Source: Candidatus Saccharimonadales bacterium
Lineage (GTDB): Bacteria; Patescibacteriota; Saccharimonadia; Saccharimonadales; JACDBH01
Direction: 5' to 3'
Assembly: GCA_049292975.1 (NCBI GenBank)
Contig: JBATRZ010000062.1
Coordinates: forward strand, 1 to 55,033
Length of the DNA stretch: 55,033 bases
Part shown: piece after piece, positions 4,868 through 54,523 of the stretch
How positions within the stretch are numbered: the first letter of the stretch is position 1
Layout of the letters: every line of letters begins with the position of its first letter
Notes under the pieces: model-generated
What the model was told of the DNA's origin: nothing
Databases searched by the model: none
Seen by the model: only the letters and a program-made list of their open reading frames with translations
Program-made: the position numbers and the translations under genes

Positions 4868-4948
4868 TAGAAAATCTCCGATTTTATATTTGATAGATAA
4901 TATTTGATATTTGAGAAGGAGAAAACGTTTAACACTGTTAGTGTGTTG

Positions 4949-16491: not shown

Positions 16492-17088
16492 TTATTTAAT
16501 TTTCTGTAATATGGCGGGGATGCGCGCGAAGTCATCTATTAGTGTCTGGCGCATGCCGCCGTTGTATAACGCTGCTGCGGGATGGAAAAGTGGTAAATAC
16601 ACTTGCCCTTTGTAGCGTTTGGGTTCGCCGTGAACCTGGTTGATTGAAGCCCCAGGCAAAAAGCAATTCATACTGTGACGTCCTAGTGTCACGACAATCT
16701 TAGGTTGAATTACCTCTAACTGTGCCTCCAAGTATGGCAGGAAAGCGGCTTTTTCGTCCGGGCTGGGGTCGCGGTTGTTAGGTGGCCGGTACTTGACGAT
16801 GTTGGTGATGTAAATGTCCTGGCGTTCCAGCCCAATGGTTGCGAGCATTTCGTTCAGGAACTTGCCTGCCGCACCCACAAACGGAATGCCCTGTTCGTCC
16901 TCGTTCTTGCCTGGTGCTTCACCGATGAACACAATGTCTGCATCAGGATTACCATCCCCAAACACGAGACGATTGGCCGTACGAGCCAAATCCGGGCAGA
17001 CATTCTGACGCAAAATCTCTTCTTTGATTTCATCAAGAAGCTTTTGCTTGGAATCTGGAATCTGGAATTTAGAATCTGGGTCAGCCAC
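16492..17088 (-). CDS. Uracil-DNA glycosylase, family 4
   Basis: VFGDGNPDADIVFIGEAPGKNEDEQGIPFVGAAGKFLNEML plus a C-terminal HPAAAL. GTG start at 17088 preceded by an AAGAGGGG Shine-Dalgarno sequence. Confidence 0.85.
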   Translation of the reverse strand: MADPDSKFQIPDSKQKLLDEIKEEILRQNVCPDLARTANRLVFGDGNPDADIVFIGEAPGKNEDEQGIPFVGAAGKFLNEMLATIGLERQDIYITNIVKYRPPNNRDPSPDEKAAFLPYLEAQLEVIQPKIVVTLGRHSMNCFLPGASINQVHGEPKRYKGQVYLPLFHPAAALYNGGMRQTLIDDFARIPAILQKIK

Positions 17089-17136
17089 CGTGCACCCCTC
17101 TTATTCCAAATTCCAGCTTCAAACTTCCAGCTTCTG
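17050..17136. repeat. Heptamer-word imperfect palindrome spanning the UDG start codon
   Basis: The left arm is GGAATCT GGAATCT GGAATTT AGAATCT GGG (17050-17080). The right arm is TTCCAAA TTCCAGC TTCAAAC TTCCAGC TTCTG (17104-17136). Confidence 0.8.
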
Positions 17137-23871: not shown

Positions 23872-23925
23872 CATCTGTAAAAGGTCAGACCCTTGGGTCT
23901 CCTTCCTTGGGTCTCCTTCAAGCCA
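23872..23925. repeat. Diverged inverted-orientation copy of the ATCTGTTAAGGGTCAGACCCTT element, with its own 14-nt tandem word
   Basis: CATCTGTAAAAGGTCAGACCCTT, then GGGTCTCCTTCCTT GGGTCTCCTTCAAG. Confidence 0.6.
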
Positions 23926-25064: not shown

Positions 25065-25087
25065 CAATTCACATTTCACATTTCACA
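25065..25087. repeat. Left inverted-repeat arm bracketing four-helix-bundle gene 2
   Basis: CAATTCACATTTCACATTTCACA is complementary to 25477-25499 at 22 of 23 positions, with a 17-nt perfect core. Confidence 0.9.
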
Positions 25088-25095
25088 TTAATGTA

Positions 25096-25458
25096 TCATT
25101 TGCCATTTTTCAGTGTAGAAATGATTTTCTGCAAGATGAAAAGCAGCTGGCTTACCTCATCTATTTCATTATGACAGGAAAAATTCTCATTGGCTTCCTG
25201 TAGGAGCCTTAGCCAGTAGCGCGTTTCTGCAGCTTCTTTCTTGGCTATGAATATTTTATTTCTAAAATCCAAGCGGGATGCGGCATTGTTTGCCTCTGTA
25301 TAATTGGCCCCGATACCGGTTGCAGAACGGATTAATTGGGTCTTGATGATTCTGTTCTCTGAGGTTTCTGGCAAAGGTTTCACAAGCCGTATGATCTGAA
25401 GCGAGAACTTAATTGTACGCTCCTCTAATTCTTTGGATCTGCCTTGTGAATTGTCCAT
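25096..25458 (-). CDS. Four helix bundle protein (23S rRNA intervening-sequence protein family)
   Basis: ...FSLQIIRLVKPLPETSENRIIKTQLIRSATGIGANYTEANNAASRLDFRNKIFIAKKEAAETRYWL fits the PF05635/TIGR02436 pattern. The gene is low-GC. Confidence 0.85.
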   Translation of the reverse strand: MDNSQGRSKELEERTIKFSLQIIRLVKPLPETSENRIIKTQLIRSATGIGANYTEANNAASRLDFRNKIFIAKKEAAETRYWLRLLQEANENFSCHNEIDEVSQLLFILQKIISTLKNGK

Positions 25459-25476
25459 TGTGAAATTATTGTGAAT

Positions 25477-25499
25477 TGTGAAATGTGAAATGTAAATTG
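25477..25499. repeat. Right inverted-repeat arm bracketing four-helix-bundle gene 2
   Basis: TGTGAAATGTGAAATGTAAATTG, made of heptamer words TGTGAAA. Confidence 0.9.
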
Positions 25500-35147: not shown

Positions 35148-35672
35148 CTACTTTAAACTCGATAGGAAGTGCTTTACAACCCTGGAACTACGGAGTGTTA
35201 CGATCTTGTCTTTGGGATACTTACTAAGCTCGGCCCGTATGACCGGGGACTGCTCCCTGCTGAAGTTCAGGACGTATTTGAGGAAGCCTGGGTCTATTCT
35301 TTCATTCCAACTTTCGGGCATTTCTTCACGGATCTTGTTGCGATACTGCACTCGCCGTTTGAAGATGCGGTAGACATAAACGCTCGGTGGAAGGTCAAGA
35401 TAAATCGTCAGGTCTGCCATGGGTACGCGGAAATCCAGCGTAAATTTGTAGACACCTTCCATAATCCACTTCTCCGCCTTAGCCTCCTGCTTAATCTTTT
35501 TGATGAAGCCTGGCCTGTCCTCCAAAAAATAATATGTCTCGGAAAATGCAATCTTATCCATATGAATAATCGGTAATTCATACGCTTTGGCTAGTTTCCG
35601 GGCCAAAGTAGTCTTGCCCGAGCCTGGCGGCCCGATAATATTGATCCGCTTGTACTTCATTCGCTCAAGCAT
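35148..35672 (-). CDS. P-loop kinase, adenylate-kinase/topology-modulation (FlaR)-like
   Basis: INIIGPPGSGKTTLARKLA...IHMDKI. ATG at 35672 follows a GGAAGGA Shine-Dalgarno sequence. Confidence 0.6.
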   Translation of the reverse strand: MLERMKYKRINIIGPPGSGKTTLARKLAKAYELPIIHMDKIAFSETYYFLEDRPGFIKKIKQEAKAEKWIMEGVYKFTLDFRVPMADLTIYLDLPPSVYVYRIFKRRVQYRNKIREEMPESWNERIDPGFLKYVLNFSREQSPVIRAELSKYPKDKIVTLRSSRVVKHFLSSLK

Positions 35673-35715
35673 ACCATCCTTCCGAAAATAACAGATGAAA
35701 AACCAAAAAGCGGAA

Positions 35716-36270
35716 TTAAATCTTGCCCCAGTTCTTGCCAATTTCTATTTTCACCACCTCCGCGTTACCGGTTTTGAGTGACCAGTCAAAATCTTTATAT
35801 TCCAAATGACCACAAGCGATATTTCGCATAAAGAATCCCAATATTGCGTGACCGACAACCAGGATATTACCCTTTGAGCTGCGTGCCGCTTCCGCTATCC
35901 CACTTATGGCCTTTTGGGCTCGTTTGATCAGCTCCTGGTGCGTTTCGACTCCCCTGCCATTCTCAAGTTCGTAGAAGAAATTCTTGTTTTCGGGACGAGG
36001 CTCGCCTTTGTACTCGCCGAGATTACGCTCGGTAAGTTCACGCAACACGACTATGTCTATGCCGCCCAACTCTTCCGAAATAATTTGAGCCGTCTGCCCT
36101 GCCCGGACAAGAGGTGAAACGAGTATGGTTGTAATCCCCTTGTCTTTGAGCAAGCCTGCGGCGATTTTGGCCTGTTCACTGCCCGCTTCTGTCAGCTGAA
36201 CCTCATCTGACGATACGTTGTCATCTCGGTTGGCCTCGCTCTGCCCGTGCCTGATAAAATATACCGTCAT
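35716..36270 (-). CDS. Histidine phosphatase family (phosphoglycerate-mutase-like) protein
   Basis: N-terminal RHG motif VYFIRHGQSEAN. Its ATG overlaps the polA stop codon (ATGA). Confidence 0.8.
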   Translation of the reverse strand: MTVYFIRHGQSEANRDDNVSSDEVQLTEAGSEQAKIAAGLLKDKGITTILVSPLVRAGQTAQIISEELGGIDIVVLRELTERNLGEYKGEPRPENKNFFYELENGRGVETHQELIKRAQKAISGIAEAARSSKGNILVVGHAILGFFMRNIACGHLEYKDFDWSLKTGNAEVVKIEIGKNWGKI

Positions 36271-39038
36271 ATCTCGCCCCAGTTTTTACCGCTATCAACA
36301 TCAACCTTCAGCTTAACTCCAAGCTCCGGATAGACATGTTCCATCGTTTCTTTCATCAGCTCGCCAACTTTTTCGGCATCGTCGGCATGGCATTCCACCA
36401 GGATACTGTCATGAATCTGCAACAACATGCGGGGCACGCCCGCAGGAGTGAGGAGTGAGGAGTGGGGAGTGGGTTTTTCAGACCCTTTCTTCTTACTTCT
36501 TTCTGCTTTCTCCGCAAAAGTTTGATCAAACTTTTGCTGCAACCGTACCATTGCTAATTTTGTGAGATCGGCCGCGCTGCCCTGGATAGGCATATTGATG
36601 GCCTGGCGGTAGGCGCCTTCGCGCACCATGAAATTGCTGGACTTTACGTCGGGCGTGGGGCGGCGGCGACCCAGTATCGTCTCGACATAGCCCTTCTTTA
36701 GGGCCTGTTCGCGCAAAGACTCGATGTATAGCTTTAATTTGGGACGGATCATAAAGTACTTGGCGATGAAATCGCGCGCCTCGGCAAAACTCATGCCCGT
36801 ACCCTCGGCCAGCCCGTGCGGCCCCTGGCCGTACATGATGCCAAAGTTCACGGCTTTGGCGTTATAGCGCATTTGTTTGGTGACTTCCTCGGGATCTATG
36901 TTCAGCACCGCGGCAGCAGTCAGCACATGGACGTCCTGGTCTTCGTTGAAGGCACGGATCATGTCTTCATCGCCGCTCAGCGCGGCAGCCAGACGGATTT
37001 CAAACTGTGAGTAGTCAGCGCTCACGAACACGTGGCCGGGCCGGGCCACAAAGCCGGTACGGATTTTTTTGCCAAGTTCAGTCCGAACGGGGATGTTCTG
37101 CAAATTTGGCTCGTTGCTGCTCAGGCGCCCGGTGGGGGCAATGGTCATCCGGAAGTTGGTGTGCACGCGGCCGTTTTCGTCCATCTGCTTTGGCAGCGTA
37201 TCGACATAGGTGCTCTTGAGCTTGGTGTACTCGCGGTATTGTTCGATACAGTCGATGATAGGGTGCAGCGCCCGTAGTTTGTTCAACACATCCGAGGCGG
37301 TGGAAAAATGCCCGGCTTTGCCCTTCTTTACGTTCCACGGCTGGCCTTCGTAGCCGTGCGTCAATTTGGCCTGCGTGCTTGAAGTTGGCAGCTGTAATTT
37401 CTCAAATAATATTTCGGACAATTGCCCCGGGCTGGAGATATTGAACTCTTGGTCGGCATGGCCGTAGATGGTCTGCTCGATGTCGCTGATTTTATCGGCC
37501 AGCTCATCGCCCATTTTGGCCAAGTAGCCGGCGTCCAGGCCAATGCCCTCGTATTCCATGCGCGCCAGAACCGGAATCACCGGCCACTCGACTTGGTCGC
37601 TGAGAGTAATCAGCTTGGTCAGCTCGCTCATACTCTCGGCCTGGTAATTCTGCAGGGCCTTAATGACAGCGACTAGCTCGCCTGCCCGTTTATGCAGCTC
37701 TTCTGAATTCAGCGCGTCAAGGCTGGCGGTTTCGTGGCCAAGGTCAGCAAAAGCCAGTTCGGTCAAAGTAGTAACGCGGCGGATGGAATTGATAAGGAAC
37801 GCGCCCACTAGTACATCATGACTAACTTTTGGTAATTCCACGCCAAGGTCCAGCAGCACCTTCAGACTGGCCTTAAGGTCGTAGCCTATGACATTCTTCA
37901 GCTCACCAAGCTTGGCAGCCACGGCTTTTTTATCCAGGGCCTTCAGGTCGAGTACATAGGCTGTCTTATCATCTGCTAGCACGATGGTTTCGGCACCGCG
38001 GCCATGTTGCCCGGACGCGTAGCTGTGCAGCACCATCTCGTCCTGTATCTTGATAGCCTTTAACGCGCCGTTCATGATGACCAGCTCTGTCTTCAGCGGT
38101 TCGATAGCGCCTGCCGTCACTTTATGCACGGGCGCTTCACTGTTATCCAGGACCTGCATGTACTCGGGCAGTTGGCGCAGCAGGCTGCGGAATTCCAGGT
38201 TGGTCAGCAGGCTCTTAAGCGCATGCACGTCCAGGTCGCGCGTGTCCGTCGCCTGAAGATCCAGGTCTACCGGCGCGTCATCCATTAGTAGCGCGACTTG
38301 CTTGCTTAAGTAGGCCGACTCTTTGCCCGCCTCAAGCTTTTTGCGGGTAGTTTCTTTGATTAACGCCAGGTTGTCATAGATGTTATCGAGCGTCTTGTAA
38401 TCCTGCAGCAGTTGCACGGCGGTCTTCTCGCCCACACCCGGCACACCTGGGATGTTATCGGAGCTGTCACCTTTGAGCGACTTCAAATCCAGGAATTGTT
38501 CTACCTCTATACCGTGTTTTTGTTCAAAATATTCAATGTCAAACCGTTCGATGTTGCTAAAGCCCTTTTTGAGCACATAGACGTGTGAATGCTGGCCGAT
38601 GCACTGCAGAGCGTCCAGATCACTGGTGATTAGCATAGTCTCCAGGCCGGCTTTATCCGCCTTCTTAGCCAGGGTACACATGATGTCATCGGCCTCGTAA
38701 TCATCCAGCTCATACAGGGGCCAGCTGAAGGCTTTGAGCAGGTCGTGCAGGATAGGAATCTGCACGTAGAAATCCGGCGGCGCAGGCTTGCGGCCGGCCT
38801 TGTACTGCGGGTACAGCTCTAGCCGTTTGCGGATGTTGGTCTTGGGCTTGTCCCAGGCCACAGCCACATAATCGGGCTTGAGCCTCTTCAGCAGCTCCAG
38901 TGACATGGCGGCAAAGCCGTAGACGCCGCCCGTAGGCGTACCGTCCTTGGTGCTGAGGTTGGGCATGGCATAATAGCCGCGGTAAAACACGCTCTTGCCA
39001 TCTATGATTGCCAGTTTCTTCCGAGCAGTATCAGCCAT
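36267..39038 (-). CDS. polA: DNA polymerase I
   Basis: 5'-nuclease domain (LAIIDGKSVFYRGYYA), then polymerase motifs DYSQFEIRLAA, RYNAKAVNFGIMYG and QIHDSILVE. ATG at 39038. Confidence 0.95.
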   Translation of the reverse strand: MADTARKKLAIIDGKSVFYRGYYAMPNLSTKDGTPTGGVYGFAAMSLELLKRLKPDYVAVAWDKPKTNIRKRLELYPQYKAGRKPAPPDFYVQIPILHDLLKAFSWPLYELDDYEADDIMCTLAKKADKAGLETMLITSDLDALQCIGQHSHVYVLKKGFSNIERFDIEYFEQKHGIEVEQFLDLKSLKGDSSDNIPGVPGVGEKTAVQLLQDYKTLDNIYDNLALIKETTRKKLEAGKESAYLSKQVALLMDDAPVDLDLQATDTRDLDVHALKSLLTNLEFRSLLRQLPEYMQVLDNSEAPVHKVTAGAIEPLKTELVIMNGALKAIKIQDEMVLHSYASGQHGRGAETIVLADDKTAYVLDLKALDKKAVAAKLGELKNVIGYDLKASLKVLLDLGVELPKVSHDVLVGAFLINSIRRVTTLTELAFADLGHETASLDALNSEELHKRAGELVAVIKALQNYQAESMSELTKLITLSDQVEWPVIPVLARMEYEGIGLDAGYLAKMGDELADKISDIEQTIYGHADQEFNISSPGQLSEILFEKLQLPTSSTQAKLTHGYEGQPWNVKKGKAGHFSTASDVLNKLRALHPIIDCIEQYREYTKLKSTYVDTLPKQMDENGRVHTNFRMTIAPTGRLSSNEPNLQNIPVRTELGKKIRTGFVARPGHVFVSADYSQFEIRLAAALSGDEDMIRAFNEDQDVHVLTAAAVLNIDPEEVTKQMRYNAKAVNFGIMYGQGPHGLAEGTGMSFAEARDFIAKYFMIRPKLKLYIESLREQALKKGYVETILGRRRPTPDVKSSNFMVREGAYRQAINMPIQGSAADLTKLAMVRLQQKFDQTFAEKAERSKKKGSEKPTPHSSLLTPAGVPRMLLQIHDSILVECHADDAEKVGELMKETMEHVYPELGVKLKVDVDSGKNWGEI
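36445..36513. repeat. Heptamer-word imperfect palindrome, in frame in polA
   Basis: GGAGTGA GGAGTGA GGAGTGG GGAGTGG GT-TTTTCAG-ACCCTTTC TTCTTAC TTCTTTC TGCTTTC TCC. 69 nt, equal to 23 codons. Confidence 0.85.
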
Positions 39039-39240
39039 CACGACCTGCTTTCAGGCAGAGCCTGAAACCCTGCCATGATTTTTTGCCCATGACTGCGTTG
39101 GTATCTGCGGTACTCGCGCACAGTATTTTGATACAGCTTGCTCCGTTCCTCGCTACCGCCTTGTCCTGGCCAAATCTGATACTGCTCAAGTCACTCATAC
39201 ATACAGTGTAACAAGAGACGGATGCTGTTGATACTTGTGC

Positions 39241-53202: not shown

Positions 53203-53250
53203 AATTGAAGGAATTGAAGGGTCTGACCCTTAACAGATAGGGTTTTTGCG
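53203..53250. repeat. Direct repeat, copy 1 (GAATTGAAG words plus GGGTCTGACCC palindrome plus TAACAGATAG)
   Basis: 53208-53240 is identical over 33 nt to 54481-54513. The flanks are also similar, about 45 of 48 positions overall. Confidence 0.9.
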
Positions 53251-53260
53251 TTTTTTTGGG

Positions 53261-53282
53261 AAAAAAGGGTCCGACCCTTTTT
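53261..53282. terminator. Bidirectional terminator-like hairpin
   Basis: AAAAAAGGG-TCCGA-CCCTTTTT. Confidence 0.6.
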
Positions 53283-53658
53283 GTGCACAATACATAAGCT
53301 TTTCTTCCGATTTACCACATACCCCAGATATGCGCATAAAAAAGCAGTCGAGATCTTACGCTAATTGTTTTTAGGATAAACCCGAGCACAATTGCTGCTA
53401 ATGTTATAGAGCTAAGATGATTGCACTAGGTAACATACCTGAACCGAGCCAGCTCATATTAAGAACCGGTCTGGCTAAATTGTCTCACCTGTTTAGTATT
53501 TATCCCTCTTGATTAACGCCAAAGTTGCAAATAATGCGATAAATATTGCTGCCAAAGCCTGCATTAAACCCGTGAATATAAAAAGTTTCAGCGGTAATAC
53601 TAATATCACTATGCACAAACAAAGCACAAGCTTTGTTGAAATCCCAATCTGTTACATC

Positions 53659-54449: not shown

Positions 54450-54475
54450 TGTAATTTAGATATAGAATTAAAGGG

Positions 54476-54523
54476 AATTAAAGGAATTGAAGGGTCTGAC
54501 CCTTAACAGATAGAGATTTTGCG
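54476..54523. repeat. Direct repeat, copy 2
   Basis: AAGGAATTGAAGGGTCTGACCCTTAACAGATAG is identical to copy 1, 1273 bp away in the same orientation. Confidence 0.9.

Follow-up and report, generated by a model that had tools for sequence, protein, structure and literature searches.

A 69-nt heptamer palindrome in the middle of a translated 28-residue extra loop of a Saccharibacteria DNA polymerase I

Contig JBATRZ010000062.1 of a Candidatus Saccharimonadales bacterium was analysed over its whole length of 55,033 nt (hereafter, the window). The gene polA, encoding DNA polymerase I (PolA), lies on the minus strand, and inside it a 69-nt palindrome composed of 7-nt words was found at 36445-36513. 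How did repeated words and their inverted counterparts come to stand within a polymerase gene, just ahead of a catalytic motif, and do they matter as nucleic acid, as peptide, or as neither? The palindrome is real, and it is the middle part of a translated extra loop of 28 residues. Its bases were exactly as an earlier sequence-only reading had written them, and the heptamer words described there were recovered by the tandem repeat program TRF.

The palm loop of PolA and its three hairpins

The gene and the parts of the insert are as follows.

36267-39041, minus strand: polA, DNA polymerase I, 924 aa from a GTG start (923 aa in the database copy P0001).
36429-36539, minus strand: variable palm-loop segment, residues 834-870 (QQKFDQTFAEKAERSKKKGSEKPTPHSSLLTPAGVPR), 111 nt, in frame.
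36514-36537, no strand assigned: hairpin 1, a perfect 24-nt palindrome GCAAAAGTTTGA/TCAAACTTTTGC, 0 nt between the arms, 100% complementary in the repeat search.
36485-36511, minus strand: purine heptamer array (sense), GGAGAAA GCAGAAA GAAGTAA GAAGAAA, coding AEKAERSKKKG.
36471-36485, no strand assigned: centre of hairpin 2, GGGTTTTTCAGACCC, coding GSEKP, with a 6-pair stem and a 3-nt loop in the promoter/terminator scan.
36444-36471, minus strand: pyrimidine heptamer array (sense), CCCACTC CCCACTC CTCACTC CTCACTC, coding PTPHSSLLTP, a low-confidence coil.
36428-36444, minus strand: hairpin 3, TGCGGG-CGTGC-CCCGCA, coding (P)AGVPR, which anchors the insert at its C-terminal end and is conserved.
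36405-36419, minus strand: motif C, QIHDS, residues 874-878, the catalytic Asp aligning to Taq D785.

The domains of PolA were assigned on the identical protein P0001 as 5'-nuclease, vestigial exonuclease and polymerase (Pfam PF02739, PF01367, and PF00476), and the alignment of window PolA with Taq Pol I gave an E value of 1e-74. The best homologues are all from Saccharibacteria, as is the window contig (Saccharibacteria/TM7). In the GTDB genome collection, from which the species itself is absent, the closest PolA match was 80% identical.

The minus-strand translation across 36445-36513 reads ...FAEKAERSKKKGSEKPTPHSSLLTPAGVPRMLLQIHDSILVE, also given as ...LAMVRLQQKFDQTFAEKAERSKKKGSEKPTPHSSLLTPAGVPRMLLQIHDSILVE. 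The loop segment has 37 aa against 9 in the nearest relatives (e.g., QEKLPKDAS), i.e., a net gain of 28 aa. Its 111 nt form three consecutive hairpins with the 69-mer as the middle one, and the perfect palindrome, the two heptamer arrays and the GC hairpin together fill the entire insert. Hairpin 1 codes for QQKFDQTF and was modelled as an extension of helix Q (AlphaFold helix 803-840). On the plus strand, TRF reported (CTTTCTT)x3.9 at 36485-36511 with 85% match and (AGGAGTG)x4.0 at 36444-36471 with 95% match. Both arrays hold at least three head-to-tail copies of a 7-nt unit, which is the criterion for a heptameric tandem repeat. The anchor pattern of hairpin 3 had a single match in the window.

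The loop sits between helix Q and the motif C strand, which bears the catalytic Asp. In the alignment with Taq Pol I, 29 residues of the query stood opposite 2, between E774 and A777 and 8 residues before D785. In an alignment of 63 sequences, Q874, H876, D877, and S878 were invariant and I875 was nearly so. The minus-strand translation and the Taq alignment agree with the earlier placing of the insertion in the Pol I palm directly before QIHDS. The statement that E. coli Pol I is about 24 residues shorter here was also borne out, with Klenow 26 residues shorter than window PolA over the aligned C-terminus.

The AlphaFold model of PolA had a mean pLDDT of 88.9. Helix Q runs to residue 840 and is followed by a short helix (842-850), a coil (851-869) and then the motif C strand, with pLDDT below 50 at residues 858-862. 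In this model, the purine array is an extension of the helix rich in Lys and Glu, and the pyrimidine array is a flexible return rich in Pro, Ser, and Thr.

As RNA, the plus strand of the 69-mer folded to -34.8 kcal/mol with 28 pairs, i.e., 12 G-C, 9 A-U, and 7 G-U, which is the mixture of pairs that had been described. Its z score was -4.6 and none of 200 dinucleotide shuffles folded as well, whereas no fold beyond chance was seen for the mRNA strand (z -0.06) or for the single-stranded DNA (z -0.24). The pairing depends on G:T and therefore exists on the plus strand only, as the sequence-only reading had it. When each arm was shuffled separately, z was -3.8 (2/2000), and when the right arm alone was shuffled the observed energy was reached in 24 of 2000 trials. 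In an arm-preserving test that kept the spacer unchanged and lengthened the arms as far as the flanking GC, the antisense strand gave z -2.25 (p 0.03), and the sense strand showed no excess. The whole insert, 36429-36539, folded to -57.2 (z -6.8) on the antisense strand and to -31.5 (z -3.0) on the sense strand. Much of the fold of the 69-mer is composition, i.e., a purine-rich arm opposite a pyrimidine-rich arm; once G-U pairs are allowed, a G/A-rich arm pairs with a U/C-rich arm in nearly any register. The T residues of the 69-mer sit opposite the sole A and G of the other arm.

Homologous loops in relatives and across the candidate phyla radiation

The spacing from QGSAAD to motif C was compared in the 120 best homologues; it was the minimal 27 residues in 70, 28-44 residues in 38, and at least 45 residues in 12. 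All relatives at 76-80% identity have the minimal spacing, and the earlier statement that the insertion is missing from the nearest relatives was borne out. On a neighbour-joining polA tree with the loop masked, the loop types were scattered, and the 34-residue KFKxESxKFKVEPRQ type appeared in at least five places. The other alleles on the tree were the 27-residue QEKLPxxAx type and long types. This scatter suggests that loop types were lost again and again, that heptamers grew convergently, or that polA recombined internally. The sequence-only reading had held that conservation of the insertion in a broad PolA subfamily would speak against it. This objection applies in part: four or more other lineages have comparable inserts, and long loops are common in the candidate phyla radiation (CPR), but the distribution on the polA tree is patchy and does not outline a broad conserved subfamily.

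Two strain-level relatives, with approximately 98% protein identity and 3.8% polA DNA divergence, carry an insert of the same length. The strain comparison covered the window and loci L082-L087; P0121, one of the strain proteins, is on at least ten contigs, of which five were examined. Three nucleotide changes were found in the 111 nt, i.e., 2 non-synonymous and 1 synonymous, and the corresponding numbers in the rest of the gene were 20 and 70. The centre of hairpin 2 reads GGGTTTTCCAGACCC in the strain variant, and the plus-strand fold is retained, with G-U replaced by A-U and an energy of -33.9.

Heptamer modules were found at the same site in four other lineages, i.e., L081, L088, L112, and L115. 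L081 (protein P0012, 75% identical) has (CCCCAAT)x4 after a repeated GGATTGAAGATCGA (TRF period 14), in which GGATTG is the complement of CAATCC. L088 (P0129, of the distant AADIMK clade) has (CTCACTT CTAACTC)x2 with the peptide SSLLTPAG kept, and its sense purine arm holds GGAGTGGGGAG, the exact complement of CTCCCCACTCC in the window. L112 has a perfect (GGAGCAA)x4, in register with the decayed purine array of the window, and four pyrimidine heptamers before CTGCGGGAG. At the place of hairpin 1, L112 has the hairpin GCAAAAGC-TAGAT-GCTTTTGC, with the same outer stem and a different interior. In L115, the peptide QSPLPNSQS is coded by (YCCYART)x4.

The arrays of L081, L088, and L112 share a common register ahead of the AG(V/E)(P/A)R anchor, and in L081 and L088 four pyrimidine units precede CTGCKGGCG with the register kept. 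The three-hairpin fold is common to the window and these three lineages, each of which has an equivalent of hairpin 3, although its register is shifted in L081. The peptides RSKK.G and SSLLTPAG(V/E)(P/A)R are kept among lineages with C-terminal regions approximately 55-75% identical. The heptamer unit differs from lineage to lineage and is alike inside a lineage, and the arrays are perfect in some and decayed in others, which indicates local turnover and no shared mobile sequence.

When the arms were swapped among lineages, the cognate pairing ranked 6th to 8th of 24 permutations, and L088 folded better on the sense strand. RNA-type covariation is therefore not claimed. The sole case of renewed specific complementarity is L081, where both arms have changed and complementarity is kept, with an antisense z of -5.9 against arm-preserving shuffles.

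As a class, 28 distinct PolA loops of at least 45 aa were collected by gapped pattern scans from Saccharibacteria, other Patescibacteria and a few other phyla, and upstream polA coding sequence served as control. All 28 are in frame and stop-free. The lag-7 autocorrelation was 0.36 in the long loops against 0.247 (sd 0.037) in the controls, with echoes at lags 14 and 21, and 12/28 inserts had their highest value at lag 7, compared with 3/140 controls. The mean fold z was -2.4 for the sense strand, -3.5 for the antisense strand and -2.4 with Watson-Crick pairs only, whereas controls were about 0 (Mann-Whitney p 1e-6 to 1e-8). A Watson-Crick z below -2 was obtained in 17/28 inserts and in 1/28 controls. 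The antisense strand folded better in 24 of the 28 inserts (Wilcoxon p 0.002), and the strand asymmetry of folding is thus a property of the class.

A metagenome scan with the AG(V/E)(P/A)R-LLQIHD anchor gave 0 loci in a collection that does not hold this species, and the same pattern does match locally. When proteins were searched with the 111-aa C-terminus, most matches were short fragments of genes, and P0129 was the useful one. Beside these, P0127, P0140, P0191, P0207, P0222, and P0233 are open reading frames of 92-181 aa that consist of the PolA C-terminus only, many starting with MVRE..., on 30-250 kb contigs of other CPR bacteria. Each could be part of a split or frameshifted polA, or an artefact of gene calling.

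Proposed growth of the loop and rival explanations

The insert is, with somewhat better than even confidence, a tolerated protein expansion segment that grew by heptamer slippage and fold-back (template-switch) copying. Slippage of a 7-nt unit would produce tandem heptamer arrays, and intrastrand template switching, i.e., fold-back copying, would place an inverted copy adjoining its template. Fold-back copying would account for the perfect palindrome of hairpin 1, for the inverted heptamer arrays and for the GC-rich hairpin 3. Slippage that keeps the frame would proceed by three units (21 nt), growth from one unit to four being the natural in-frame step, so the recurrent count of four (1 + 3) may come from such steps. 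The product would be filtered for reading frame and hydrophilicity. Selection holds the insert in frame and without stop codons.

Both kinds of copying error have precedents. The over-representation of heptameric repeats in bacteria has been put down to the footprint of the polymerase and to its slippage on a stretch of about 7 nt (PMC4692102). Quasipalindromes are well established as sites of template-switch mutation in E. coli and yeast, where copying of the opposite arm perfects or extends imperfect inverted repeats (PMC7202029). Such mutagenesis would yield both a spacer-less palindrome like 36514-36537 and the renewed arm complementarity of L081. A perfect palindrome lacking a spacer is the kind of product expected of template switching, not of selection on RNA. 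Template-switch mutagenesis is known, however, for point and short complex mutations in laboratory reporters, and it has not been described as building a loop of 28 residues.

The pairing on the plus strand only is most plausibly a by-product of codon composition, not a sign of antisense RNA. Successive units of a heptamer array fall in all three frames, and U in the sense pyrimidine arm would bring hydrophobic residues into an exposed loop. The pyrimidine arm would thus stay C-rich, while AT pressure would push the purine arm from G to A, for which Lys, Glu, and Asn are acceptable. We infer that an A-rich purine arm facing a C-rich pyrimidine arm leads to A:C mismatches in the mRNA and to G:U pairs in the antisense strand. 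The better antisense folding of 24 of the 28 long inserts agrees with this.

Several points weigh against this account of slippage, fold-back copying and tolerance. No slippage or template-switching event was directly observed, and the codon-composition account is reasoning. The self-complementarity of the 69-mer alone is only marginally above composition; with G-U pairs forbidden its excess disappears (z +0.26). The sequence-only reading had named arm complementarity no better than shuffled controls as a point that would refute it; whole-sequence shuffles give z -4.6, the arm-preserving result is marginal (z -2.3 to -3.8) and the Watson-Crick-only excess is gone. The inverted-copy origin of the window insert therefore rests mainly on its relatives. 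No heptamer copy-number polymorphism was found among the window, P0121, and P0122, which have the same length. The patchy loop types on the polA tree would need many losses, convergent growth or recombination. The conserved peptide ends, RSKK.G and SSLLTPAG, point to protein-level selection beyond tolerance. The recurring three-hairpin layout could come instead from selection for nucleic-acid structure.

It is unlikely that the insert was selected for a protein role, i.e., as a Pol theta-like palm insert that would alter lesion bypass or the use of poorly paired primers, with the repeats being only its mode of origin. Human Pol theta, also of the A family, has approximately 36 extra residues, against 28 here, in the same partly flexible palm loop between the QGSAAD helix and motif C. 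The spacing from QGSAAD to motif C is 63 residues in human Pol theta (to QLHDE), 55 in the window and 27 in the basal form. By its residue numbers, this Pol theta segment is probably the one named Insert 3. Palm Inserts 2 and 3 of Pol theta are required for bypass of abasic sites and thymine glycol (PMC9962433). A protein role would also agree with the peptides conserved among lineages and with the reading frame kept in every case. The Pol theta insert, however, is dissimilar in sequence, and its function was shown while its origin from repeats is not known; for the window insert a function would be an analogy. Moreover, the insert is lacking in most close relatives (70/120), and its low-complexity sequence was modelled as partly disordered. 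The strain changes (2 non-synonymous and 1 synonymous against 20 and 70) hint at relaxed constraint but are not significant. By default the peptide is taken to be neutrally tolerated, and it may act much as the palm inserts of Pol theta do.

It is rather unlikely that an in-frame mobile palindromic element of the Rickettsia palindromic element (RPE), REP or MITE type landed in polA and persisted in a tolerant loop, and this origin is disfavoured for the window insert. For some other inserts at this loop, such an origin clearly holds. A REP-like palindrome, GTCATCCTGAGC...GAAGGATCT, with the peptide SCHPELVEGS..ISRQARND, lies in frame in the palm loop of three Saccharibacteria (L093:7531-7598, L099:6638-6700, and L101:322-385), and a related copy is present outside polA on a Moranbacteria contig (L096:4100). 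The family pattern is GTCATYCTGAGC...GAAGRATCT, translated as ...HPE(L/P)VEGS...ISRQARND.... More palindromic words were seen in CPR polA loops, i.e., ARIIREPFVPNSRAIR in L098, PACRTGR in L109, and one in L122. The scatter of loop types on the polA tree and the in-frame, stop-free state of the insert in a tolerant loop would suit a mobile element. RPEs, too, are palindromic DNA within the reading frame of housekeeping genes, where they add a peptide to the protein surface, and they show that such insertions can persist (PMC10969869). However, RPEs are dispersed families of approximately 150 bp with conserved sequence, whereas the window insert has no other copy in the available sequence and its units are lineage-specific and locally generated in appearance. 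The arrays matched nowhere else in the 55-kb window when up to 2 mismatches were tolerated, TRF of the 22-kb L082 locus puts the array inside polA only, and all heptamer arrays in the window differ in unit. The unit varies by lineage, while position, register and unit number are constant. No terminal inverted repeats or target duplications were found; compared with the short-loop relatives, QEKLPxxAx is replaced and the flank is not duplicated.

A bolder form of local growth is improbable. Here, the loop before motif C would be a dedicated 'self-templated' segment of CPR bacteria, a three-hairpin in-frame module regenerated time and again by slippage and hairpin-templated copying. It would provide a Pol theta-like insert in repair-poor, reduced genomes, or a slippage switch of the polymerase domain, and the antisense-fold preference would be a real strand-specific structure.

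A functional nucleic-acid hairpin, i.e., a plus-strand cis-antisense RNA or a strand-specific DNA or mRNA structure regulating polA, is very improbable. The plus-strand z of -4.6, the three-hairpin layout in four lineages, the better antisense folding of 24/28 long inserts, the G-U to A-U change with the fold retained in the strain variant and the complementarity kept in L081 after change of both arms could all be read in its favour. The promoter/terminator scan showed nothing above shuffles, with 0 promoter-like sites and 2 terminator-like sites against 1.1 expected, and no Rfam family was assigned. For the antisense RNA considered in the sequence-only reading, foldability was the sole support. 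At a permissive threshold, the sole Rfam match was Yfr1 (20.4 bits against a gathering score of 38; 36424-36489, minus strand). This cyanobacterial RNA was rejected as sub-threshold and as coming from the CACUCCUCAC word; the match is probably chance, driven by a ACUCCUCAC-like word of the heptamer array. The arms are interchangeable among lineages, L088 prefers the sense strand, the register of hairpin 3 is shifted in L081, the loopless 24-nt palindrome is unlike a product of RNA selection, and codon composition would account for the asymmetry.

That there is no palindromic ancestry at all, and that unrelated Lys/Glu and Pro/Ser/Thr tracts face each other by chance, with G-U pairs joining purine to U/C tracts, is hardly credible. 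The Watson-Crick-only z of the 69-mer and the right-arm shuffle (24/2000) would be expected from coincidence, and foreign arms pair as well as the cognate ones. However, the exact complement of a window word in L088, the T residues opposite the only A and G of the other arm, the adjoining perfect 24-nt palindrome and the 17/28 long loops with Watson-Crick z below -2 (1/28 controls) speak against it.

A contingency locus, in which gain or loss of heptamers before motif C would reversibly turn off the polymerase domain and leave the 5'-nuclease intact, is the least likely of all. In its favour, the 7-nt unit is not a multiple of 3; plus or minus 1 or 2 units leads to stops at residues 873-900 with loss of the catalytic Asp, and the frame returns when 3 units are taken out. 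Phase variation driven by heptanucleotide repeats is known from other systems (PMC8262952), and the perfect arrays of L081, L112, and L001 imply that whole units slipped recently. Against it, there are just four units, half of them imperfect, all contigs examined are in frame and of equal length, and 28/28 long loops are in frame. Phase variation was set aside since no length variant occurred among the contigs. An untranslated insert that is spliced or bypassed was rejected, as the length of each of the 28 long loops is divisible by 3 and none contains a stop.

Other repeats of the window, known systems and meaning

The window is rich in other heptamer arrays. Period 7 or 14 accounted for 11/16 TRF rows, or 10/14 arrays once overlaps were collapsed, and every heptamer array has its own unit. 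Further arrays start at 4881, 15917, 17049, 17107, 20347, 23891, 25068, 25444, and 28414. In 695 kb of fetched loci, mostly from Saccharibacteria and other CPR bacteria, period 7 was the commonest single period. Some of the arrays in these loci lie in polA itself, in variable parts other than this loop (L081:3013, L081:3225, L089:1595, and L090:1583); L001 has a perfect heptamer array and L094 an inverted one.

At 17049-17134, two complementary arrays, i.e., (TGGAATC)x4.4 and an array of 14-nt period, form a hairpin with z about -4.6 on both strands. The hairpin takes in the 5' leader of a UDG-superfamily gene (16492-17088, minus strand) together with its ribosome-binding site, GTG start and first codons, and may sequester the ribosome-binding site. 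The inverted arrays (TTCACAT)x3 at 25068-25089 and (TTGTGAA/ATGTGAA)x8 at 25444-25499 flank a gene for a 120-aa 23S_rRNA_IVP protein (PF05635; 25096-25458, minus strand), and a like arrangement lies upstream of the 23S_rRNA_IVP orthologue in the strain locus L082 (22387-22442).

The sequence-only reading had tentatively placed the palindrome in a wider class of palindromic word-array modules. This held as far as other inverted heptamer arrays are concerned (17049-17134 and L094), but not for the proposed kinship of the centre with the GGGTCNGACCC family. The centre, GGGTTTTTCAGACCC, does not match that motif; its loop is 4 nt longer and its flanks are different. The 11-nt motif with its flanking repeat GGAATTGAAG...TTAACAGATAG is not in the polA insert, and the polA centre is not conserved in L081, L088, or L112, so the link was rejected. 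In the window, GGGTCNGACCC occurs only at 53219, 53267, and 54492, and at 23884, which had been named as another site, the bases are GGTCAGACCC. Two of the three sites lie in a repeat of approximately 45 nt, GGAATTGAAGGGTCTGACCCTTAACAGATAG..TTTTGCG, found at 53205-53240 and 54478-54515, the second copy being preceded by a 9-10-nt tandem repeat (GAATTAAAGG)x3 at 54465-54494. The third resembles a terminator hairpin, and 53262-53283 (AAAAAAGGGTCCGACCCTTTTTGT) has the look of an intrinsic terminator.

Next to polA, a histidine phosphatase (PF00300) and a P-loop kinase-like protein are encoded at 35148-36270, between polA and a NUDIX gene. In the 98%-identical strains (L082-L087), the NUDIX gene directly follows polA and both genes are absent, i.e., a strain-level gene insertion or deletion.

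Parts of the polA insert have counterparts in known systems. Bacterial heptameric repeats, e.g., the cyanobacterial STRR CCCCA(A/G)T / GGGGA(T/C)T and the Xanthomonas GGGAATC, are likewise tandem 7-nt units in a handful of copies with some inverted pairs (PMC4692102), and the L081 unit CCCCAAT is the same word as a Nostoc heptameric repeat. The published repeats are mainly intergenic, whereas the repeats here are inside an essential-type gene and translated in frame. Unlike the published ones, the arrays here pair with an inverted array, and homologous arrays stand in the same register in distant lineages. PARCELs are also coding repeats with DNA dyad symmetry, an amphipathic peptide and a punctate phylogenetic distribution (PMC2996958). 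However, PARCELs are 25-residue tandem domains of proteins of unknown function, spread by gene transfer, while the present repeat is a 7-nt unit within PolA. Known already, each by itself, are heptamer repeats, palindromic insertions kept in frame (RPE), dyad-symmetric coding repeats (PARCEL) and A-family palm inserts, and limited literature searches found no description of their combination in a recurrent heptamer-periodic, hairpin-forming, translated Pol I palm-loop expansion across CPR.

For genome scans, the locus carries a caution, since a purine-rich coding tract opposite a pyrimidine-rich one will always mimic a strand-specific RNA hairpin. The polA insert would give a single-gene view of a protein loop growing from nothing via 7-nt tandem and inverted copying errors, filtered only for reading frame and hydrophilicity. 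One loop of an essential-type polymerase has been expanded repeatedly across the candidate phyla radiation, and it is the same loop that has extra residues in Pol theta, whose palm inserts are functionally important. The insert may therefore offer a handle on slippage and template-switch activity in reduced genomes, and on the effect of such an insert on the behaviour of the polymerase.

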